A stretch of DNA of 5,690 nt. Source: an uncultured archaeon. Its GTDB lineage: Archaea > Iainarchaeota > Iainarchaeia > Iainarchaeales > CSSED10-239. The DNA is taken from contig CAZQEL010000029.1 in NCBI GenBank assembly GCA_964591795.1, positions 1,015-6,704 of the forward strand. Reading direction: 5' to 3'. Made by a program: the position numbers and the translations under genes. Shown piece after piece: positions 1 through 5,690 of the stretch. The notes beneath the pieces were generated by a model, which was not told where the DNA came from, searched no databases, and saw only the letters and a program-made list of their open reading frames with translations. The stretch's first letter is position 1, and every line of letters begins with the position of its first letter.

Positions 1-371
1 ATACAATTAAAGATAGATTCTATAAAGAATATCTATTACCTGAAGAAAAATTTATATATTCTGCAGAAATTATTAAAAAACCAAAATTTCTAATAACAGG
101 ACATACTAAAGAACAAGGAATATTTAAAGATTATAAATTTTTTGGAAAACTACCAAAAGAACCTATATTTCCTATGTTAAACTCTAAAAAAGAAAAAATA
201 AAATATACAGTTGATTTAATTTTAAAAAACATTGGTGTGAATAAAGAAATTTTAAAAAAAGATATAATTTTATTAAAATCACCTAAATATATTAAAAAAA
301 ATCTAAATGTAGAACAACAAACTAAACTAAAAGAAAGAATATTTAATTCTTTAAAAGAGAGATTTTTATAA
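1..371 (+). CDS. 3' portion of a longer gene truncated by the window edge (hypothetical protein, last ~123 codons). Possibly the partner of the downstream PEP-utilising swivel-domain protein.
   Basis: The frame of the listed 174..371 ORF stays open to the window start: from nt 3 it reads TIKDRFYKEYLLPEEKFIYSAEIIKKPKFLITGHTKEQGIFKDYKFFGKLPKEPIFP before the listed Met. The Met at 174 is therefore probably internal. Stop TAA at 369-371. The next gene starts 17 nt downstream on the same strand. I recognise no family motif in this fragment. Confidence 0.55.
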   Translation, partial: TIKDRFYKEYLLPEEKFIYSAEIIKKPKFLITGHTKEQGIFKDYKFFGKLPKEPIFPMLNSKKEKIKYTVDLILKNIGVNKEILKKDIILLKSPKYIKKNLNVEQQTKLKERIFNSLKERFL

Positions 372-388
372 CAAAAAGGAAAATAAAC

Positions 389-667
389 ATGGAATATTTA
401 ATAAATGGAAAAATTGAAGGCATCATAAAAATAATAAAGTCAGAAAAAGATCTTACCACTTCAAAAAATAAAATAATTGTAATTAAAGAAGTGACCTTAG
501 AAATATTACCAAGATTGCATAACGTTAAAGGCATTATCGTTGAAAAAGGAAGTAAACTATCACATATTACTATATTTTTAAGAGAAATTGGAATACCAAT
601 GGTAAGAATACCAAATGCTTTAAAGAAATATAAAGATAAAGAAAAAATTAATCTTCAAAAACTTTAA
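389..667 (+). CDS. Stand-alone PEP-utilising enzyme mobile ('swivel', phosphohistidine) domain protein, 92 aa
   Basis: KIIVIKEVTLEILPRLHNVKGIIVEKGSKLSHITIFLREIGIPMV matches the PEP-utilizers mobile-domain pattern (..ILV....P......aaGiite.Gg.tSHaAi.aRelGIPaV), including the Ser-His catalytic dipeptide. The N-terminal G..EG motif is also present. A purine-rich AAGGA lies 8 nt upstream of the ATG. Stop TAA. Confidence 0.8.
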   Translation: MEYLINGKIEGIIKIIKSEKDLTTSKNKIIVIKEVTLEILPRLHNVKGIIVEKGSKLSHITIFLREIGIPMVRIPNALKKYKDKEKINLQKL

Positions 668-1769
668 TTTTATTTAAATATGTTTGATACCCATACCATT
701 TAAATTCATTAATTATTGGGGTGTCAAATAAAATAGATTCTTTCATAAACAAGTCATTTTCAATAATGACCATATATAAATTTTCAAAATCATCTTCTTC
801 TAATAAATCTCCAAATTGAGGTTCAATTAAATATGAACTAAATAAAGATAAATGAACATCATCAGGAGTTTTTATCTCTTTATCTGTAATCATTACAACA
901 CAATGACCATTATATTCTCCTGATTGAGGATCATATAGATTTCCACAAGCTACATATGGATGTATGTAACCTTCTTCTAATTTATATTCTTCAACTCCTT
1001 TATCATAGTACCAATCACCATAAATAAAATAATTTTTGGTAGTATCAGAAAGAATAACCCCTTCTATTATAGGAATTTTATTTTTTTCAGTAATTACATA
1101 ATCTATTAAATATCTTAATTGTGCAGTAAATAATAATGAAAAATCTTCACAATCTCCACCTACACTATCATTTACAATATGGTTTAAATTTTGCAAATTA
1201 TCTTCTTTACCAGATGTCTTTAAATCAGGAATATATTCTAATTTTAAATATCGCTCATTAATATATTCTATACATGTAGTTTTAATATAACAATATTTAT
1301 TTTCACAATAAACACAAGAATTAGTAAGTCTACTTTTTGTAGAATTAATATTTTCAATATTATTAATTGTTGAATTTTGTTGAAACCAATCCATTAAATC
1401 TTTAATTACTTCTTTAAAATTAAATAAATCGTTTTTAATAGTTTCATAATCTTCAAGTAATATACTATTTTCATTTTCTAGGTCTGTATTTTGATTTGAA
1501 CTTTCTAGTAGTTTTTTTTCTAAAGAATTATAATCATTAGTTAGATTTTCTAGTTTTAGATTTAATAAGTCATAATTACTAGTTAAATCATCATGGTTTT
1601 CTAGTAATAGATTATGACTTTTTAATAATTCATTATACTCATTTACATTTAAACTATATTCTTTATATAAATTTTGATAGTTAAAGAGAAATATAAATAT
1701 AAAAATACCTAATATAATAAATAAACTGAGTTTAATATAAAAATAAATTGATTTTTTCTTTTTAATCAT
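648..1769 (-). CDS. Membrane-anchored (N-in signal anchor) coiled-coil protein with a C-terminal transglutaminase-like / papain-fold Cys-protease-like domain, 373 aa
   Basis: The long ORF is 648..1868. I place the start at the internal ATG 1769-1767 (MIKKKKSIYFY...) for three reasons: the upstream 33 codons overlap the RHH gene, GAGGT (1780-1776) sits 6 nt upstream of this ATG, and the RHH stop is only 1 nt away.
Domain order:
- K-rich N-terminus plus TM helix (IKLSLFIILGIFIFIFLF).
- About 90 aa of heptad-like Leu/Asn/Asp/Glu coiled coil.
- Cys cluster CVYCENKYCYIKTTC.
- GGDCEDFSLLFTAQLRYL, resembling the transglutaminase-core G.C..Fa.lf.allR motif, then GHCVVMI (candidate His) and acidic residues (TPDD / LIEPQ).
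The CDS call is solid. The fold assignment is motif-level only. Confidence 0.7.
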   Translation of the reverse strand: MIKKKKSIYFYIKLSLFIILGIFIFIFLFNYQNLYKEYSLNVNEYNELLKSHNLLLENHDDLTSNYDLLNLKLENLTNDYNSLEKKLLESSNQNTDLENENSILLEDYETIKNDLFNFKEVIKDLMDWFQQNSTINNIENINSTKSRLTNSCVYCENKYCYIKTTCIEYINERYLKLEYIPDLKTSGKEDNLQNLNHIVNDSVGGDCEDFSLLFTAQLRYLIDYVITEKNKIPIIEGVILSDTTKNYFIYGDWYYDKGVEEYKLEEGYIHPYVACGNLYDPQSGEYNGHCVVMITDKEIKTPDDVHLSLFSSYLIEPQFGDLLEEDDFENLYMVIIENDLFMKESILFDTPIINEFKWYGYQTYLNKIKVFED

Positions 1770-1770
1770 A

Positions 1771-2034
1771 TTAAAACCTCTTTTGTCTAAGTCTTCTAGT
1801 AGAATATCTTCCTTTATCTTTATATGAGTCTTTAAGATAAGAAGAATTTTCTTTTTGTAAAACTTCATAAGTAGGTTCAGTATAACCTAATTGTTTTAAT
1901 GCTTGATCAAATATTTTAGTAAAACTTAAGTTATTTTCTTGTACAAACTTATCTTGGCTATTTGTAATTCTAATATTTATCCTTACATTTCTTTTTTCTG
2001 GAGAATAGTCTTTTTTTACATCTTCTAATTTCAT
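1771..2034 (-). CDS. Small ribbon-helix-helix (CopG/Arc/MetJ-like) DNA-binding protein with a basic C-terminal tail, 87 aa (paralog copy 1)
   Basis: RNVRINIRITNSQDKFVQENNLSFTKIFDQALKQL fits the RHH pattern: a beta-strand of alternating residues, helix A, an N-x-S turn, then helix B. I place the start at ATG 2034-2032 (MKLEDV...) rather than the tracked GTG 2043. The paralog at 5279-5539 begins its homology exactly there, and both copies have GTGAT + 4 nt + ATG. The stop TAA (1771-1773) lies 1 nt from the next gene's start. Confidence 0.8.
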   Translation of the reverse strand: MKLEDVKKDYSPEKRNVRINIRITNSQDKFVQENNLSFTKIFDQALKQLGYTEPTYEVLQKENSSYLKDSYKDKGRYSTRRLRQKRF

Positions 2035-2122
2035 AATCATCACACTATGCAGTCATTGTACATACACTAGACACAGAATATTTATAAATAGATCGGAAAA
2101 GAAGTAAAATATAATAAGAAAA
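1808..2122 (-). repeat. Direct repeat copy A (~315 bp: most of the RHH CDS + 5'UTR + promoter)
   Basis: Hand alignment with 5313-5624 at a constant offset of 3505 nt through CDS and promoter. I count about 25 mismatches over the 227 coding nt (1808-2034 vs 5313-5539) and 1 mismatch over the 43-nt promoter block. Homology then continues with a small indel as agtaaaatataataa. It fades in the 3' coding tails and beyond about 2122/5624. Confidence 0.85.
2056..2098 (-). promoter_or_regulatory. Conserved promoter/operator block of RHH copy 1 (TATA-like TTTATAAATA at 2081-2090 plus downstream TGTA-CA-TACA inverted repeat)
   Basis: The 43-nt block ttgtacatacactagacacagaatatttataaatagatcggaa is 42/43 identical to 5561-5603. 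The TATA-like box sits 47 nt upstream of the ATG in both copies. GTGAT (2043-2039) is SD-like. Confidence 0.6.
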
Positions 2123-2322
2123 AAAGAAAGAAAAAATATAACTTCAAAAGTAGAAGTCATATTAAGTATTGGAAAAATAAAACTAATTAAATACGGTTTT
2201 TTGAAGAATTTATTTTTTTAATAAATTTATTCTGATTTATACTTTCTTTTTTATATACACCAATTAAACAACTTATTAATCCAATAAAAAATTATCTTTT
2301 TTTAATATCTATTTCTATTCAT

Positions 2323-3369
2323 TTATGTATTATTTGATTTCGCCATTACCTTTTCTAATAATTTTTTAGTTTCAGGGTTATCTATAAAATCCATTAAGTT
2401 AAATTGCTCATAGAATCTATCCATTGTATCTTCAAATCTTTCTTTAATTTCGTTTATTTCAAAAACTGTGTTTACAGATAATTCTTCTAAGTTAAGATTA
2501 TTTTCTATATAATAATTCTTCATATCACTTAAACAATTATGAATTGCTATATAATCCAAAAAAGAATTATAAGCTTCAATTCCTAATTTTTTTAATTGAT
2601 AATCTTCAATTTTATTATACATTTTAGTAAAATAAATAATAAAATCTGAAAAATTGTTTATTATATTGTATTCATCTTTGAAGTAAGGTTTTAGTTTTAG
2701 TAGCTTTCTAGTGTTTTCTTCTAAGAAATTAAAATTACCATTATATGCTTGTTCTAACATTTGATCTTTTAATTGATACAATTGATAAATTTCTGAATCG
2801 TTTGAATAATATTGTTTTTTTCTAAATTCTTTAGAACTCATTATCTTTGATTGTTCAATTATATTTTCACTAACTGTATTATAGATTTCTTCTTCTGATA
2901 TATCTTTTATATCTAGTTGTATTAATTTAGAATAATTTATTTCAGGATTATAAGATACAGGAGTAATTTGTCCATACTTATACCACATTACTGGTAATCC
3001 TAAATTTAGTTTGTTATTAATTTGAACAACTAGTTTTTGCATCTGTGTTCGTGTTGGTTTTTGCCCAATTATGCTATAAATATAATCATTTATTTTTGAA
3101 AATAAATAATATATTTTTTGTTTATGTTCTAATTTTATTTTAAAATTAAAATAAACGTCTGAAATTTGATTTACTTTGATATTTAGAAAAGCCTCTGATA
3201 ATAAATACACTTTATCATTAGCAACAACTAATTTTTCTTTAACTAGATTTAAAATAATTCTATTAACTGTTTCTTTAGGTATATTTATTCTTTTAGAGAT
3301 TTCATCAACAGTTGATTTGGGATTTTGAGTTAAATTTAACATTATTTTACTAAAATTTCCTAAGCTCAT
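2323..3369 (-). CDS. Winged helix-turn-helix (MarR/ArsR-like N-terminal domain) protein with a ~280-aa uncharacterised, largely helical C-terminal region, 348 aa
   Basis: The N-terminus KSTVDEISKRINIPKETVNRIILNLVKEKLVVANDKVYLLSE follows the classic wHTH pattern (recognition helix, then beta-hairpin wing). I see no Walker or nuclease motifs in the rest. A purine-rich AAAGGAT lies upstream of the ATG at 3369. Stop TAA at 2323-2325. Confidence 0.75.
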   Translation of the reverse strand: MSLGNFSKIMLNLTQNPKSTVDEISKRINIPKETVNRIILNLVKEKLVVANDKVYLLSEAFLNIKVNQISDVYFNFKIKLEHKQKIYYLFSKINDYIYSIIGQKPTRTQMQKLVVQINNKLNLGLPVMWYKYGQITPVSYNPEINYSKLIQLDIKDISEEEIYNTVSENIIEQSKIMSSKEFRKKQYYSNDSEIYQLYQLKDQMLEQAYNGNFNFLEENTRKLLKLKPYFKDEYNIINNFSDFIIYFTKMYNKIEDYQLKKLGIEAYNSFLDYIAIHNCLSDMKNYYIENNLNLEELSVNTVFEINEIKERFEDTMDRFYEQFNLMDFIDNPETKKLLEKVMAKSNNT

Positions 3370-3424
3370 TTTTAATTATCCTTTTTCAATCTTTAATATA
3401 TTTCAGTTTATCTAGATCTTTGTA

Positions 3425-3480
3425 ACATATATATGTGCAAACCTATATATATATGTTTGCTTTATTTAAACAATTAATTC
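3425..3480. promoter_or_regulatory. Palindrome-rich divergent control region between the wHTH gene and the PIN-like gene
   Basis: A perfect 12-nt palindrome ACATATATATGT (3425-3436) is immediately followed by GCAAAC-ctatatatatat-GTTTGC (3437-3460). The segment 3443-3480 recurs with small indels at 5174-5208. Confidence 0.45.
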
Positions 3481-3500
3481 GTATTTTGATAATTTAATAC

Positions 3501-3515
3501 CAAAAGCTTTATATA
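3501..3515 (+). promoter_or_regulatory. BRE/TATA-like promoter element for the PIN-like gene
   Basis: caaaagc TTTATATA: an A-rich BRE-like stretch followed by a TATA box at 3508-3515. It lies 45 nt upstream of GTG 3560 and 81 nt upstream of ATG 3596. Confidence 0.4.
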
Positions 3516-3559
3516 GGATTAGATATATAGATAAATATAACGTAAGATATACATAAATA

Positions 3560-4114
3560 GTGATTATTATTGATTCAAGAATATTAGAAATATTAATGTT
3601 ATTTGACAAAAAGTCAAAAATAGTGATTGATACTAACATGTACATATTTAATTATGAATTTATCACGGACAAAGTTCCAAAATATGATTGCCAAACAAAG
3701 ATAAAAAAAGAAAATGTAGGCCTTATTTTTAAATATTTAGAAGAGAAACAAATATCTGTAGTAGTACCCAAAATAATATTTAATGAAATTAAAAAAAAAA
3801 TGACTCAATTTAGATATATCTACAATAAAGACATAATCTTTGGTAAATTAAACATTATTGAAGACAAAGACGAAATCTTTGAAATAGATAATAGACCATT
3901 AGCAGAACAACTATTTTATGAATCATCAACTGATTTAATGATATACATTTACTGTAAGGAAAAAGAAATACAAATCATCATAACAGATAACACAACAGAT
4001 TTTGATGAATCTGAAAAAAGATACAACAGAAGCATAAACAAAAGCAAGATAATGATAACAATTGCAGGAATCGCAGACACTTACAAAGCAATAAGTAAAA
4101 AGAAGATAAAATAA
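3560..4114 (+). CDS. PIN-domain-like putative ribonuclease with a ~35-aa basic C-terminal extension, 184 aa (172 aa if ATG 3596 is the start)
   Basis: The PIN acidic signature appears in the right order and spacing: IVIDTN (first Asp), IIFNEIKK (Glu), SSTDLMIYIY (Asp), IIITDNTTDFDE (distal Asp residues). The tracked start is GTG 3560. ATG 3596 (MLFDKKSKIVIDTN) is an equally plausible start and gives a typical short lead-in to the DTN motif. The stop TAA at 4112-4114 overlaps the next ATG. Confidence 0.65.
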   Translation: MIIIDSRILEILMLFDKKSKIVIDTNMYIFNYEFITDKVPKYDCQTKIKKENVGLIFKYLEEKQISVVVPKIIFNEIKKKMTQFRYIYNKDIIFGKLNIIEDKDEIFEIDNRPLAEQLFYESSTDLMIYIYCKEKEIQIIITDNTTDFDESEKRYNRSINKSKIMITIAGIADTYKAISKKKIK

Positions 4115-4281
4115 TGGGAAAAATATTTGAATTAATCGCAGGAAGATTATTAGGATTAGTATTAATATTCGCGTTTATTGATTCTGGAAATCAAATACTT
4201 CGTTCTGCAGGATTAATGACTCTTGGAATAGTAGTTTTAGTTGTCGCATTGTTCTTAATTGCAATGTTCTTTAAAAAATAA
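4114..4281 (+). CDS. Untracked 55-aa two-transmembrane-helix microprotein, translationally coupled to the PIN-like gene
   Basis: My own translation: MGKIFELIAGRLLGLVLIFAFIDSGNQILRSAGLMTLGIVVLVVALFLIAMFFKK*. It has two hydrophobic helices, a polar DSGNQILRS loop and a KK C-terminus. Its ATG overlaps the upstream stop as TAATG (4112-4116). The region is noticeably more GC-rich than the surrounding spacers. A hairpin terminator follows directly. Confidence 0.6.
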   Translation: MGKIFELIAGRLLGLVLIFAFIDSGNQILRSAGLMTLGIVVLVVALFLIAMFFKK

Positions 4282-4286
4282 ACCTA

Positions 4287-4319
4287 AATAGCGACATAGT
4301 CGCTATTAATACTATTTTT
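4287..4319 (+). terminator. Hairpin + T-tract terminator-like element (possibly bidirectional)
   Basis: AATAGCGAC-ata-GTCGCTATT forms a perfect 9-bp stem with a 3-nt loop (4287-4307). TTTTT follows at 4315-4319. The opposite strand also runs into a T-tract (complement of 4273-4278). The element sits 6 nt after the micro-ORF stop and is the only GC-containing perfect stem in this AT-rich spacer. Confidence 0.5.
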
Positions 4320-4429
4320 AAATAAAGTAAATATTGTTTACCATTTCTAATAAATAATATTCACTATGAAAATTAGGATTATTTAATCACTATTTATTTT
4401 TTATTTCAATAATATCTTATTTAATTAAA

Positions 4430-4675
4430 TTATCTCTTTTTTATAAAATAAATCCACTTAATATTTCCTTGCCCAATAGTATAAAAATGAACTTTATAAA
4501 AATTACTTTTTCCTTTGAAATATTTTGTTTTATCATAAGGAGATTAACCATATTTTTTAATAAAATGATTATAATAAGATTCAGCTGATTTTACCACCCA
4601 TTTAGGAGGAGAAGATATTTCAACCCAATCTGAATAAGTTAAAAATTTAATTATTTTTTTTACTATAGATGTCAT
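4430..4675 (-). pseudogene. Small - strand frame of 81 codons interrupted by one in-frame TAA: either a 43-aa ORF (4544-4675) plus a 37-codon open extension, or a disrupted small gene
   Basis: My translation: MTSIVKKIIKFLTYSDWVEISSPPKWVVKSAESYYNHFIKKYG*SPYDKTKYFKGKSNFYKVHFYTIGQGNIKWIYFIKKR*. The internal TAA is at 4544-4546 and the final TAA at 4430-4432. Stop-free runs of this length are uncommon in DNA this AT-rich, and the region has locally raised GC. I have no confident family assignment. The tail K.FKG..NFYKV.. is only vaguely RelE/ParE-like. Confidence 0.3.
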
Positions 4676-4759
4676 AAATAATATATTTATGAATGTAATT
4701 TAAAGTTATCTTTCCAACAGCTAATAAGGGTATTTATTTTTTAATGTTATTATTTATAA

Positions 4760-4927
4760 TTAGTCGTTTTCTTTTATTTTTATACCTTCTTCTAATAATT
4801 TAGAATATAGTTTATTAGCTTTATTAAAATATTTATTAAAAGTTATTTCTTTAGAACTAAATTTATTTGTCAAATTATTTAATTTTTTAGCTAATTCAAT
4901 CCCTTCAATATTAAGTTTCCAACCTAC
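4760..4927 (-). other. 55-codon in-frame open extension immediately after the zinc-ribbon gene's TAA (no ATG of its own)
   Basis: Reading on in the same frame after the TAA at 4928-4930 gives VGWKLNIEGIELAKKLNNLTNKFSSKEITFNKYFNKANKLYSKLLEEGIKIKEND*, with the stop at 4760-4762. The composition is protein-like and helical. There is no in-frame ATG or GTG start, only one TTG. Confidence 0.3.
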
Positions 4928-5143
4928 TTAACAAATAGGACACAATAAATAATCATTAATTTTTAGTGGAAAAATAGGGATGAAAAATAAAGTAAACCAT
5001 TCTGTTCTTTTTATAAATTGATAATAAACTTCATTATTACAATTTGTACATTTAATAAGAATAGTAGATCCATAATTTTTTGTAGTTGTATAACCCCAAC
5101 CAAATATAATAAATCCTTTTTCATTCATTTTAATAATTTCCAT
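4928..5143 (-). CDS. Small zinc-ribbon membrane protein (CxxC...hydrophobic segment...CxxC), 71 aa
   Basis: FIIFGWGYTTTKNYG...CTNCNN...WFTLFFIPIFPL...CPIC contains two CxxC pairs flanking a hydrophobic FTLFFIPxxP segment. This pattern recalls a widespread family of small zinc-ribbon proteins, but I am not certain of the family name. The alternative start Met6 is at 5128. There is no purine-rich SD; only AT-rich TATA-like tracts lie 15-40 nt upstream, so the leader may be short or absent. Confidence 0.65.
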   Translation of the reverse strand: MEIIKMNEKGFIIFGWGYTTTKNYGSTILIKCTNCNNEVYYQFIKRTEWFTLFFIPIFPLKINDYLLCPIC

Positions 5144-5208
5144 TTATATATTAATAATTATATAAATATGATTCTATATATATGTTTCTTTATTTTTACC
5201 AATTATTC
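5144..5208 (-). promoter_or_regulatory. Upstream region of the zinc-ribbon gene, containing a copy of the motif also found at 3443-3480
   Basis: 5174-5208 (ctatatatatgtttctttatttttaccaattattc) aligns with 3443-3480 (ctatatatatatgtttgctttatttaaacaattaattc) with three small indels. TATA-like tracts lie between the motif and the ATG. Confidence 0.4.
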
Positions 5209-5278
5209 AACAAAACTTATACTTATTTTCAAACTTTTTCTTCCCAATAAATTAATCTTCATTTCCTATTCAAAATAA

Positions 5279-5539
5279 TTAATATCTCCTTTTATTAGAA
5301 GTATTATGCCTTCTTCCTTTATCTTTATATGAATCTTTAATATAAGATGAATCTTCTTTTTTTAAATTTTCAAAGGTTGGTTCAGTATACCCTAGTTGTT
5401 TTAAAGCTTGATCAAATATTTTTGTAAAGCTTAGGTTATTATCTTGTACAAACTTATCTTGACTATTTGTAATCCTAATATTTATTCTAACATTTCTTCT
5501 TTCTGGAGAATAATCTCTTTTTACATCTTCTAGTTTCAT
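5279..5539 (-). CDS. Small ribbon-helix-helix DNA-binding protein, 86 aa (paralog copy 2)
   Basis: MKLEDVKRDYSPERRNVRINIRITNSQDKFVQDNNLSFTKIFDQALKQLGYTEPTFENLKKEDSSYIKDSYKDKGR.. has 68/76 identical residues with copy 1 before the tails diverge. All 8 substitutions are conservative or between polar residues (K/R, E/D, Y/F, L/I, V/N, Q/K, N/D). I place the start at ATG 5539-5537 (GTGAT + 4 nt). The tracked ATG 5572 lies inside the conserved promoter block only about 14 nt from the TATA box, and copy 1 has no ATG there (C instead of T). Confidence 0.8.
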   Translation of the reverse strand: MKLEDVKRDYSPERRNVRINIRITNSQDKFVQDNNLSFTKIFDQALKQLGYTEPTFENLKKEDSSYIKDSYKDKGRRHNTSNKRRY

Positions 5540-5624
5540 GTTTATCACGATAGGAGTCTGTTGTACATACATTAGACACAGAATATTTATAAATAGATCG
5601 GAATAGTAAAATATAATAAAGAAA
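5313..5624 (-). repeat. Direct repeat copy B (RHH CDS + 5'UTR + promoter)
   Basis: See copy A (1808-2122). Same orientation, offset 3505 nt. Confidence 0.85.
5561..5603 (-). promoter_or_regulatory. Conserved promoter/operator block of RHH copy 2 (TATA-like box 5586-5595)
   Basis: 42/43 identical to 2056-2098, with the same 47-nt TATA-to-ATG spacing and the same GTGAT SD-like element (5548-5544). Confidence 0.6.
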
Positions 5625-5690
5625 TGAAGATATTATTAGTTAAAATTAATTTATTTAAGATTATTTTCTATTCTTTTGTTTCTTAATTTA

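Follow-up and report, generated by a model that had tools for sequence, protein, structure and literature searches.

A duplicated promoter-plus-gene module for a predicted ribbon-helix-helix protein, with a putative autoregulatory operator, in a Diapherotrites-like DPANN archaeon

The 5690-bp stretch of contig CAZQEL010000029.1 (assembly GCA_964591795.1, from an uncultured archaeon) that was analysed here, referred to as the window, has a GC content of ~20% and carries two direct copies, A and B, of a module of ~350 bp in which a promoter is joined to the gene of a small ribbon-helix-helix (RHH)-like protein. With a probability of roughly 0.6, these are two old paralogous copies of an autoregulated RHH module, in which a palindrome at the predicted transcription start is the operator, copy A controls the operon of a transglutaminase-like surface protein, and the likeness of the copies has been kept by function together with occasional gene conversion. 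Its protein family, found in Diapherotrites/Forterrea-like DPANN archaea, is small and uncharacterised; the module consists of a T-rich element, a transcription factor B recognition element and TATA box (BRE/TATA, ATCTATTTATAAA), a 10-bp palindrome, a short, fast-evolving leader that keeps a Shine-Dalgarno sequence, and a gene of ~87 codons.

The two copies, both on the minus strand, form the sole outstanding direct repeat in the window. A gapless match of 300 nucleotides (nt) at 86% identity (1807–2106 and 5312–5611) resumes past a 3-nt indel with a further 20-nt match (2103–2122 and 5605–5624), giving full extents of 1807–2122 and 5312–5624; the ~315-bp repeats at 1808–2122 and 5313–5624 that an earlier note on this DNA had described are real, and were placed correctly to within 1 nt. 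Each repeat is a self-contained unit of promoter and gene encoding a protein of ~87 aa, and its ends are functional edges, the points at which similarity between A and B stops exactly. Copy A comprises an 87-aa coding sequence (1771–2034; MKLEDV...QKRF) whose ATG at 2034 is conserved family-wide, a 22-nt leader (2035–2056) with a Shine-Dalgarno-like GTGAT at 2039–2043, a 43-nt promoter/operator block (2056–2098) that holds the BRE/TATA element at 2081–2093 and the palindrome TGTA-TG-TACA at 2057–2066, and an upstream T-rich element, TTATTATATTTTA (2099–2122), which forms the 5′ edge of the module. Copy B has an 86-aa coding sequence (5279–5539) with the same MKLEDV start, its ATG at 5539 and a differing basic tail (RRHNTSNKRRY), a leader (5540–5561) in which only GTGAT is kept relative to copy A, a 43-nt block (5561–5603; BRE/TATA at 5586–5598, palindrome at 5562–5571) and a T-rich 5′ edge (5604–5624), where homology to a related strain's locus, L032, stops too (related loci and contigs are given L numbers, proteins P numbers). 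The T-rich element is common to the two window copies (winA and winB) and to L004, L007, L011, L017 and L032, despite different upstream genes. The repeat is not an assembly artefact, because independent contigs from other assemblies span each copy with its unique flanks: L001 corresponds to window 1–2637 and L031 to 4695–5690, at 99.96–100% identity, and a third, L032, spans the copy B side (3818–5624). Misassembly, which the earlier note had named as a refuting outcome, has thus been checked for, and the repeat stands.

Over the shared coding part, A and B differ at 25 of 228 nt, 14 of these being third codon positions, and their proteins at 8 of 76 residues; the 43-nt blocks (2056–2098 against 5561–5603) differ at one position, and the leaders between block and ATG at 12 of 21. 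The hand counts of coding, residue and block differences made in the earlier note were reproduced exactly on this recount. Nei-Gojobori estimates of 0.050 nonsynonymous and 0.53 synonymous substitutions per site (dN and dS; omega ~0.09) bear out the purifying selection that it had suggested for both copies. Within the A/B pair the block is better conserved than the leader (Fisher p = 1e-6) and than third codon positions (p = 0.008).

Promoter conservation was followed further by comparing every locus that encodes a family member and by scanning metagenomes for the promoter pattern. The block proved to be a family-wide footprint in ~12 lineages, composed of ATCTATTTATAAA, a spacer of 14–16 nt that includes TG.GTC, and TGTA-NN-TACA. 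Across the 12 lineages ATCTATTTATAAA and the palindrome arms are invariant and the central dinucleotide is free (TG, CT, CA or TA), which is the signature of a putative dyad-symmetric protein-binding site. Mean pairwise identity, calculated over ten lineages, is 0.83 for the block, 0.84 for the coding sequence, 0.76 for third codon positions, 0.65 for the 30 nt further upstream and 0.48 for the leader. In the window the palindrome, TGTACATACA on the plus strand, lies at 2057–2066 and 5562–5571, which confirms the inverted repeat noticed earlier downstream of the TATA box, and these are the only TGTANNTACA sites present (chance expectation 0.12).

Archaeal TATA boxes usually have their first T near −30; counted on that assumption from the first T of TTTATAAA, the palindrome sits at about −8 to +2 of the predicted transcription start. 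The site is dyad-symmetric and overlaps the regulator's own core promoter and predicted start, a position where archaeal repressors that block RNA polymerase recruitment bind. Because the block is conserved in every family member found and the invariant arms lie at the predicted start, an autoregulatory operator is the most economical reading of it, and the proposal of the earlier note that it is a constrained regulatory site is upheld. The metagenome-wide scan for the full promoter pattern gave 12 matches, 8 of which are family promoters (with a family gene next, or a contig end just before it), whilst 3 to 4 look like chance and one, on L026, closely copies the promoter but precedes a different operon. 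Few other TGTANNTACA sites occur across 195 kb of related loci and none has a TATA context, the motif being no general feature of promoters; a regulon around the cargo genes was dropped on finding no extra operators there. Two other identities of the block were also rejected. Rfam, searched over the whole window at E <= 1, gave no RNA family, and an upstream open reading frame (ORF) inside the block is contradicted by the MYVQ extension being found only in copy B and P0005, a stop codon closing it in copy A, so that the block is non-coding.

The close protein family is restricted to 9 clusters in a search of 5.8 billion proteins, with an almost invariant core, RNVRINIRITNSQDKFVQENNLSFTKIFDQALKQLGY, and a conserved ATG start codon. 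A profile search of 1.84 billion representatives added 74 more distant relatives, mostly of ~50–70 aa, that cover query residues 1–53. Invariant residues are R18, N20 and R22, on a strand (R18-I-N20-I-R22-I-T) in which they alternate with hydrophobic residues, and S37 and T39; an S/T cap precedes the second helix, completing the strand-helix-helix pattern of RHH proteins. The AlphaFold model based on an alignment of 80 sequences, which was used in place of an earlier run with 10, has a mean predicted local distance difference test score (pLDDT) of 82.6, reaching 94–97 over residues 21–50, and consists of an extended segment (8–24) followed by helices at 25–33, 38–48 and 56–73; in this single-chain prediction the strand is extended and unpaired. 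This is the RHH topology as it would look in a monomer, and it agrees with the invariant R18-x-N20-x-R22 and the S/T cap. The N-terminal half is most likely an RHH DNA-binding domain.

Comparison with known RHH proteins gives faint signals. All 10 members tested match phrog_497, annotated as HicB-like (best E 9e-4), hhalign aligns the strand-to-helix-B region with that of CopG (sequence verified against PDB 1b01/2cpg) at E 0.0038 with a probability of just 9%, and among the 80 relatives there are sporadic sub-threshold matches to NikA-like (2), 56B_RHH (1) and DUF6290 (1) models. CopG of pMV158 and ORF56 of the Sulfolobus plasmid pRN1 are plasmid RHH autorepressors, and the window protein resembles them in its small size, its predicted strand-helix-helix core, its position as the first gene of the operon and the dyad site over its own promoter. 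It differs in its C-terminal extension of ~35 residues, which includes a conserved LKDSY motif and a basic tail, in having membrane or secreted peptidase-like proteins rather than a replicase encoded downstream, in its chromosomal location in Ca. Forterrea, and in showing no detectable membership of a known family. Arc and Mnt of phage P22 and F55 of the fusellovirus SSV1 are RHH switches of temperate elements. The strand with alternating polar residues is shared with them (R-x-N-x-R here, Q-x-N-x-R in Arc), as is a putative operator in the region between TATA box and start, whereas no sequence similarity to Arc was detected (hhalign E 0.26). A sister clade of the family is likewise encoded next to integrases of the Sulfolobus spindle-shaped virus (SSV) type, unlike the window copies, which are not next to an integrase. 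A third group, the RHH antitoxins (the HicB C-terminal domain and VapB-type proteins), is brought to mind by phrog_497, the sole consistent library match, and by a PIN-like gene in the cassette between the copies. That gene, however, is separated from copy A by 1.5 kb and from copy B by 1.2 kb and lies on the opposite strand, so that the adjacency of a type II toxin-antitoxin pair is lacking; it pairs instead with a divergent winged helix-turn-helix (wHTH) gene and a coupled gene for a protein with two transmembrane (TM) segments, and the cargo of the RHH genes is an exported protein of 373–1673 aa and no toxin.

In the proposed mechanism, a dimer of the RHH-like protein would bind the palindrome, the bound dimer would occlude the transcription start, and this occlusion would repress both the module's own promoter and whatever is co-transcribed downstream. 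Copy A is translationally coupled to a membrane-anchored transglutaminase-like protein, in an arrangement like that of Ca. Forterrea. Copy B heads a 3.2-kb accessory stretch (zinc ribbon, 43-aa ORF, PIN/two-TM pair and wHTH gene), and the cassette with this extra module occupies the place where relatives have a single module. The likeness of the A and B blocks would reflect mainly functional constraint, because the footprint is family-wide, and also occasional gene conversion.

The gene downstream of copy A (648–1769, minus strand) encodes a protein of 373 aa in which a single N-terminal TM segment is accompanied by a coiled coil and by a domain that resembles transglutaminases and BTLCP cysteine peptidases. 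Its ATG lies 1 nt past the RHH stop codon, and its GAGG Shine-Dalgarno sequence is within the 3′ end of the RHH gene. Transglut_core (PF01841) is matched by 15 of 21 homologs of this cargo (best E 3.5e-5), the window protein itself giving no match; the profile of the cargo family aligns to PDB 4fgo at the GDCEDF motif, and with C207 and H289 invariant and D304 nearly so, a Cys-His-Asp triad is present. The earlier description of this cargo as transglutaminase-like is supported on all three counts. The complete genome of Ca. Forterrea multitransposorum (DPANN), placed in the Iainarchaeota by NCBI and called a Diapherotrite in the paper describing it, has one detectable module copy, in the chromosome, followed by a Transglut_core membrane protein. 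BLASTP gave no direct link between the two cargo proteins, which are connected only by the Transglut_core signal that they share.

The same surroundings recur in other lineages. The order PEP-utilizers gene, module, transglutaminase-like gene is found in L011, L012 and L017, a PEP-utilizers gene lies 5′ of the B copy in L032 too, and L012 and L018 have the order PEP-utilizers gene, pyruvate phosphate dikinase (PPDK)-like gene, module, next gene. The window's stand-alone PEP-utilizers mobile-domain protein (389–667, plus strand; PF00391, E 1.5e-12) is a synteny marker shared with L012 and L018, and the pair of PEP-related genes at the window's left end shows 58% identity to its L012 counterparts, the L012 gene lying two genes upstream of its RHH copy. 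Against a Forterrea-type arrangement, the window lineage has gained the cassette and a second module between the PEP-utilizers and transglutaminase-like genes. As a side observation, the genes at window 3–667, L012:33–2490 and L032:19–738 encode stand-alone PEP-utilizers proteins of 92–239 aa and a 509-aa protein with PPDK_N and PEP-utilizers domains; the PEP-utilizers genes are syntenic with the RHH module in several lineages, with differing orientations. Compared with L012, the window lineage appears to have the segment from the PEP-utilizers gene (5′ of copy B) to the transglutaminase-like gene in inverted orientation.

Elsewhere in the family the cargo differs. Giant proteins of 1541–1673 aa with S8 peptidase and Kazal domains are encoded downstream of family members in L004–L009, other members are followed by small ORFs (L013–L015), and one by nothing (L016). 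The regulator with variable cargo that the earlier note had put forward therefore holds across genomes, with transglutaminase-like proteins, giant S8 proteins and small ORFs as cargo. The giants at L004:970–5595, L005:1343–6349, L006:595–5601 and L007:1858–6879 combine Peptidase_S8, fervidolysin-like propeptide and Kazal inhibitor domains, and the giant gene begins 4–26 nt from the RHH gene in L005–L009 and ~300 nt from it in L004. Another copy, in L003:1–20285 of a 193-kb NCBI metagenome contig, lies inside an island of defence- or mobile-type genes (DUF559, MazG-like, SLFN-like helicase, DNA methylase, DUF6036, AlbA_2/HATPase_c_4 and Bro-N).

The first 64 codons of A and B share 88% nucleotide identity, and each copy shares 90% with L004, a locus found in a different metagenome; in every comparison the synonymous differences come close to the plateau for this base composition, and the leaders of A, B and L004 are mutually unrelated save for the Shine-Dalgarno sequence. 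Since each copy is at least as similar to L004 as to the other, the sequences indicate that the copies are old paralogs, or that one came from elsewhere. With a dS of ~0.5, a recent duplication is not supported.

Exchange between modules is indicated by an allele of a closely related strain. The contig L032 (Joint Genome Institute 3300039186) is the B locus of this strain and encodes P0084, a hybrid protein recorded on two contigs that has an A-type body and a B-type tail. L032 is 99.7% identical to the window over 3818–5278 and 100% identical in the tail, whereas 37 differences are packed into the 240 bp of 5333–5572, a tract of copy B that begins within the promoter block, reaches codon ~69 and has A-type sequence in its place (the A-type tract extends to about codon 76). 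At the informative sites within the tract 38 of 41 have the A state, and the flanking sites (3 upstream and 21 downstream) have the B state. The switch points fall within stretches of 31 and 21 nt that are identical in A and B, so that the tract ends inside A/B-identical sequence, and there are 5 positions at which the tract departs from window copy A. Such a mosaic is what one would expect of gene conversion or some other homologous exchange between alleles of the module, and it supports the recombination between copies that the earlier note had envisaged. Homologous recombination has been documented in Ca. Forterrea populations (PMC5905446). Beyond 5624, on the 5′ side of copy B, the window and L032 are unrelated, L032 carrying a 239-aa PEP-utilizers gene there; because of this, a rearrangement breakpoint coincides with the module's upstream edge. 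The 66 nt 5′ of copy B in the window gave no informative match when searched. That these 66 nt are unrelated to the same place in L032, and that independent ENA contigs stop exactly at the window ends (L001 at position 1, L031 at 5690), hints at repeats or strain-variable DNA just beyond the window.

The cassette between the copies holds five genes or ORFs only. A gene for a 348-aa protein with an N-terminal wHTH (2323–3369, minus strand; HTH_24 E 2.8e-6, TrmB E 4.4e-5; 18 homolog clusters) diverges from one for a 184-aa PIN-like protein (3560–4114, plus strand; PIN_12 E 6.8e-6, below the curated cut-off), of which the start codon is uncertain. These are followed by genes for a 55-aa two-TM protein (4114–4281, plus strand) and a 43-aa ORF (4544–4675, minus strand), both of which come from the ORF list and are also called in L032, and for a 71-aa zinc-ribbon protein (4928–5143, minus strand; Zn_ribbon_15 E 4.7e-7, above cut-off). 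The zinc-ribbon gene lies 135 nt downstream of copy B. The view that each copy heads different cargo consequently stands for copy A, with its transglutaminase-like gene, and for copy B co-transcription with the zinc-ribbon gene across this gap is putative. Scans with Pfam, NCBIfam and PADLOC found no integrase, replication, partition or other mobility gene in the cassette, and a tRNA gene scan of the window found none.

The divergent wHTH/PIN pair recurs in L003:16924–18722 (36% and 27% identity; PIN E 5e-5), 7.4 kb from the L003 RHH copy, inside the defence-like island and with no adjacent RHH gene; the 345-aa TrmB-like neighbour of the L003 RHH gene was considered as a homolog of the window wHTH protein and proved not to be homologous. 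In the wHTH/PIN intergenic region (3370–3559) a palindrome, GCAAACCTATATAT/ATATATATGTTTGC at 3437–3460, may be the operator of the wHTH protein. The PIN-like stop codon overlaps the start codon of the two-TM gene by 1 nt (TAATG; 4111–4281), which suggests that the PIN and small-membrane-protein genes are a translationally coupled pair. The upstream regions of the wHTH and zinc-ribbon genes (3378–3476 and 5144–5278) resemble each other at 81% over 31 nt and at 73% over ~100 nt with gaps; this may be chance in AT-rich DNA.

A link to mobile elements comes from relatives of the window copies. In L024 (1650–2570) a tRNA-Arg(CCT) gene leads directly into the ORF of an SSV-type integrase of 289 aa (Phage_integr_3, E 4e-27), and this ORF starts inside the 3′ half of the tRNA gene and stops inside the ATCTATTTATAAA block of the RHH promoter. 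The layout is the same in L019 (6134–7119), with tRNA-Ser(GCT), a 297-aa ORF annotated as an archaeal phage integrase, and an RHH-family promoter right after it. In L016 the integrase is split: its last ~30 codons (GKNHYL...NF*, 3040–3129) lie directly 5′ of the RHH promoter, and codons 1–285 (8210–9064) end exactly at the contig end 5 kb downstream, the joined pieces making a complete integrase. The pieces flank ~6 kb with the RHH gene, a 368-aa gene and a 1057-aa gene, and we take the split to be the classic partitioned-integrase signature of SSV-type integration. L014 has only an integrase remnant adjoining the module. A sister clade of the RHH family is found directly after SSV-type integrases in integrated elements. 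For the window itself, tblastn with the family-linked integrase gave nothing, and no integrase or remnant adjoins the copies of the window clade. The L026 promoter (ACATCTATTTATAAACC...TCTTAATGTATATACA; 859–1064, minus strand) stands before a 49-aa acidic ORF and a PD-(D/E)XK nuclease gene (E 6.8e-23), with no RHH gene, on a contig of 2.8 kb that looks virus- or plasmid-like and also carries an EcoRI-methylase-like gene and small zinc-finger ORFs; it may represent cross-regulation or promoter capture. IMG/VR was scanned with three proteins (RHH, wHTH and integrase) and with the promoter pattern, and returned nothing but one chance promoter match inside a coding region, and tblastn of the RHH protein against plasmid and phage collections returned no match.

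Several findings count against two paralogous copies of an autoregulated RHH module. Although the block exceeds the leader and third codon positions in conservation, its excess over the entire coding sequence in the A/B pair is marginal (p = 0.057) and the family-wide figures are about equal, so that the claim of a promoter better conserved than its gene stands in the first two comparisons and not in the others. The operator role, with binding of the protein to it, is predicted from position, symmetry and conservation alone, and part of the block's excess conservation in the pair could be owed to gene conversion. The duplication age is only roughly known, as synonymous sites are near saturation at 20% GC. 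The mosaic allele comes from metagenome contigs, for which a chimeric assembly is conceivable, and its 5 differences from copy A are a poor fit to a chimera and to a very recent conversion alike, neither simply accounting for them. As for the protein, an initial AlphaFold run on 10 sequences returned one long helix at low confidence; no model of Pfam, NCBIfam or PADLOC was matched by the window copies and no RHH model by the close family, sequence profile searches of the PDB (A2 and A4) gave chance matches only, and Foldseek found nothing with E below 1 in the PDB or BFVD, so that a significant match to a curated RHH family or solved RHH structure is lacking. The earlier identification as RHH thus has the sequence pattern, the predicted secondary structure and the weak profile matches in its favour, and no support from databases; the family is absent from the curated libraries searched, and literature searches gave no description of it. 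Some of these points would also suit a module with no autoregulation, in which what is conserved in the block is no more than a strong core promoter and its initiator or initially transcribed sequence, or the block is kept identical by gene conversion, and the protein acts elsewhere or does not regulate this promoter by binding DNA. Any archaeal promoter is under constraint at its TATA box and initiator region, and conversion between the copies is indicated. Yet invariant arms around a free central dinucleotide are a dyad pattern typical of a dimeric site and not of an initiator, the motif is absent from the other promoters of the window and from 195 kb of related loci, and conversion cannot explain conservation between different organisms; we consider this explanation improbable.

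The origin of the arrangement can also be explained differently. In a Campbell-type integration, a circular element of ~3.5 kb, made up of an RHH module and the cassette genes, would have recombined with a resident module, by homologous recombination or catalysed by an integrase in trans, leaving one module at each junction. This agrees with the single module that more distant relatives have between the PEP-utilizers/PPDK-like and transglutaminase-like genes, where the window has module, cassette and module, and with an A/B divergence like that of copies from different organisms, as if one had arrived from elsewhere. In its tail, copy B resembles the integrase-linked clade, the sister clade follows SSV-type integrases, the same promoter occurs on L026, and the crossover points of the L032 mosaic are inside the module; direct homologous segments around accessory DNA and a sharply bounded mosaic are what Campbell-type repeats and gene conversion of dispersed paralogs have in common with the window. 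Here, however, the repeats are 11% diverged and old, the cassette, for all its direct repeats at both ends, has no integrase, replication or partition gene, no integrase remnant adjoins either copy, and IMG/VR holds no relatives of the RHH protein, wHTH protein or integrase, nor do the plasmid and phage collections hold any of the RHH protein. The earlier suggestion of excision or inversion of the cassette by recombination between the repeats likewise found no backing: no excised or inverted form, empty site, or circular or deletion junction was found, and both strains seen carry the cassette. We therefore hold Campbell-type integration to be unlikely, if a serious possibility. A more speculative version, which appears distinctly unlikely, would make the module an immunity-like switch and portable homology handle of undescribed small integrative elements of Diapherotrites-like DPANN, the 3.5-kb unit of the window being an integrase-less element or relic that entered a resident module by homologous recombination, and resident copies having been co-opted for surface or secreted peptidase operons; it would fit L026, because the same operator stands there before a nuclease operon, as in cross-regulation. 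It is very improbable that the 43-nt blocks are the attL and attR attachment cores of a site-specific recombinase and that the gene similarity is incidental. Two near-identical ~43-bp direct repeats do surround the cassette, and the L024 integrase stops inside the block and that of L016 9 nt upstream of it, but the block is single in Ca. Forterrea and most loci and is always the promoter of the same gene, recombination in L024 and L019 takes place in tRNA genes and in L016 inside the integrase gene ~100 nt upstream of the block, none of it at the block, and the similarity runs through the whole gene. Misassembly of the repeat or the arrangement might be suspected in a metagenome contig with ends that coincide with ENA contig ends; given the three independent contigs with unique flanks, and copies too diverged to collapse into one, it is hardly credible.

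As two paralogous copies of an autoregulated RHH module, the system would be conventional in kind, the mechanism being, by analogy, the one that is standard for repressors of the CopG, Arc and ORF56 type; it is the protein family itself that is uncharacterised. Were the more speculative element-borne switch true, one repressor/operator pair would couple mobile-element immunity to the surface biology of a symbiont, and the controlled peptidases, transglutaminase-like and giant S8-Kazal, may mediate contact with the host. The mosaic allele offers a concrete case of conversion between dispersed paralogous genes, in a lineage whose populations are already thought to be shaped by homologous recombination. 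Regulation in DPANN archaea is almost unexplored, and here an unannotated family, recurrently linked to large exported peptidase-like proteins and to SSV-type integrative elements, comes with a clean cis-element (13 nt of BRE/TATA and a 10-bp palindrome) in ~12 lineages. The protein and its 43-bp site are a ready pair with which the biochemistry of transcription control in these archaea could first be studied.

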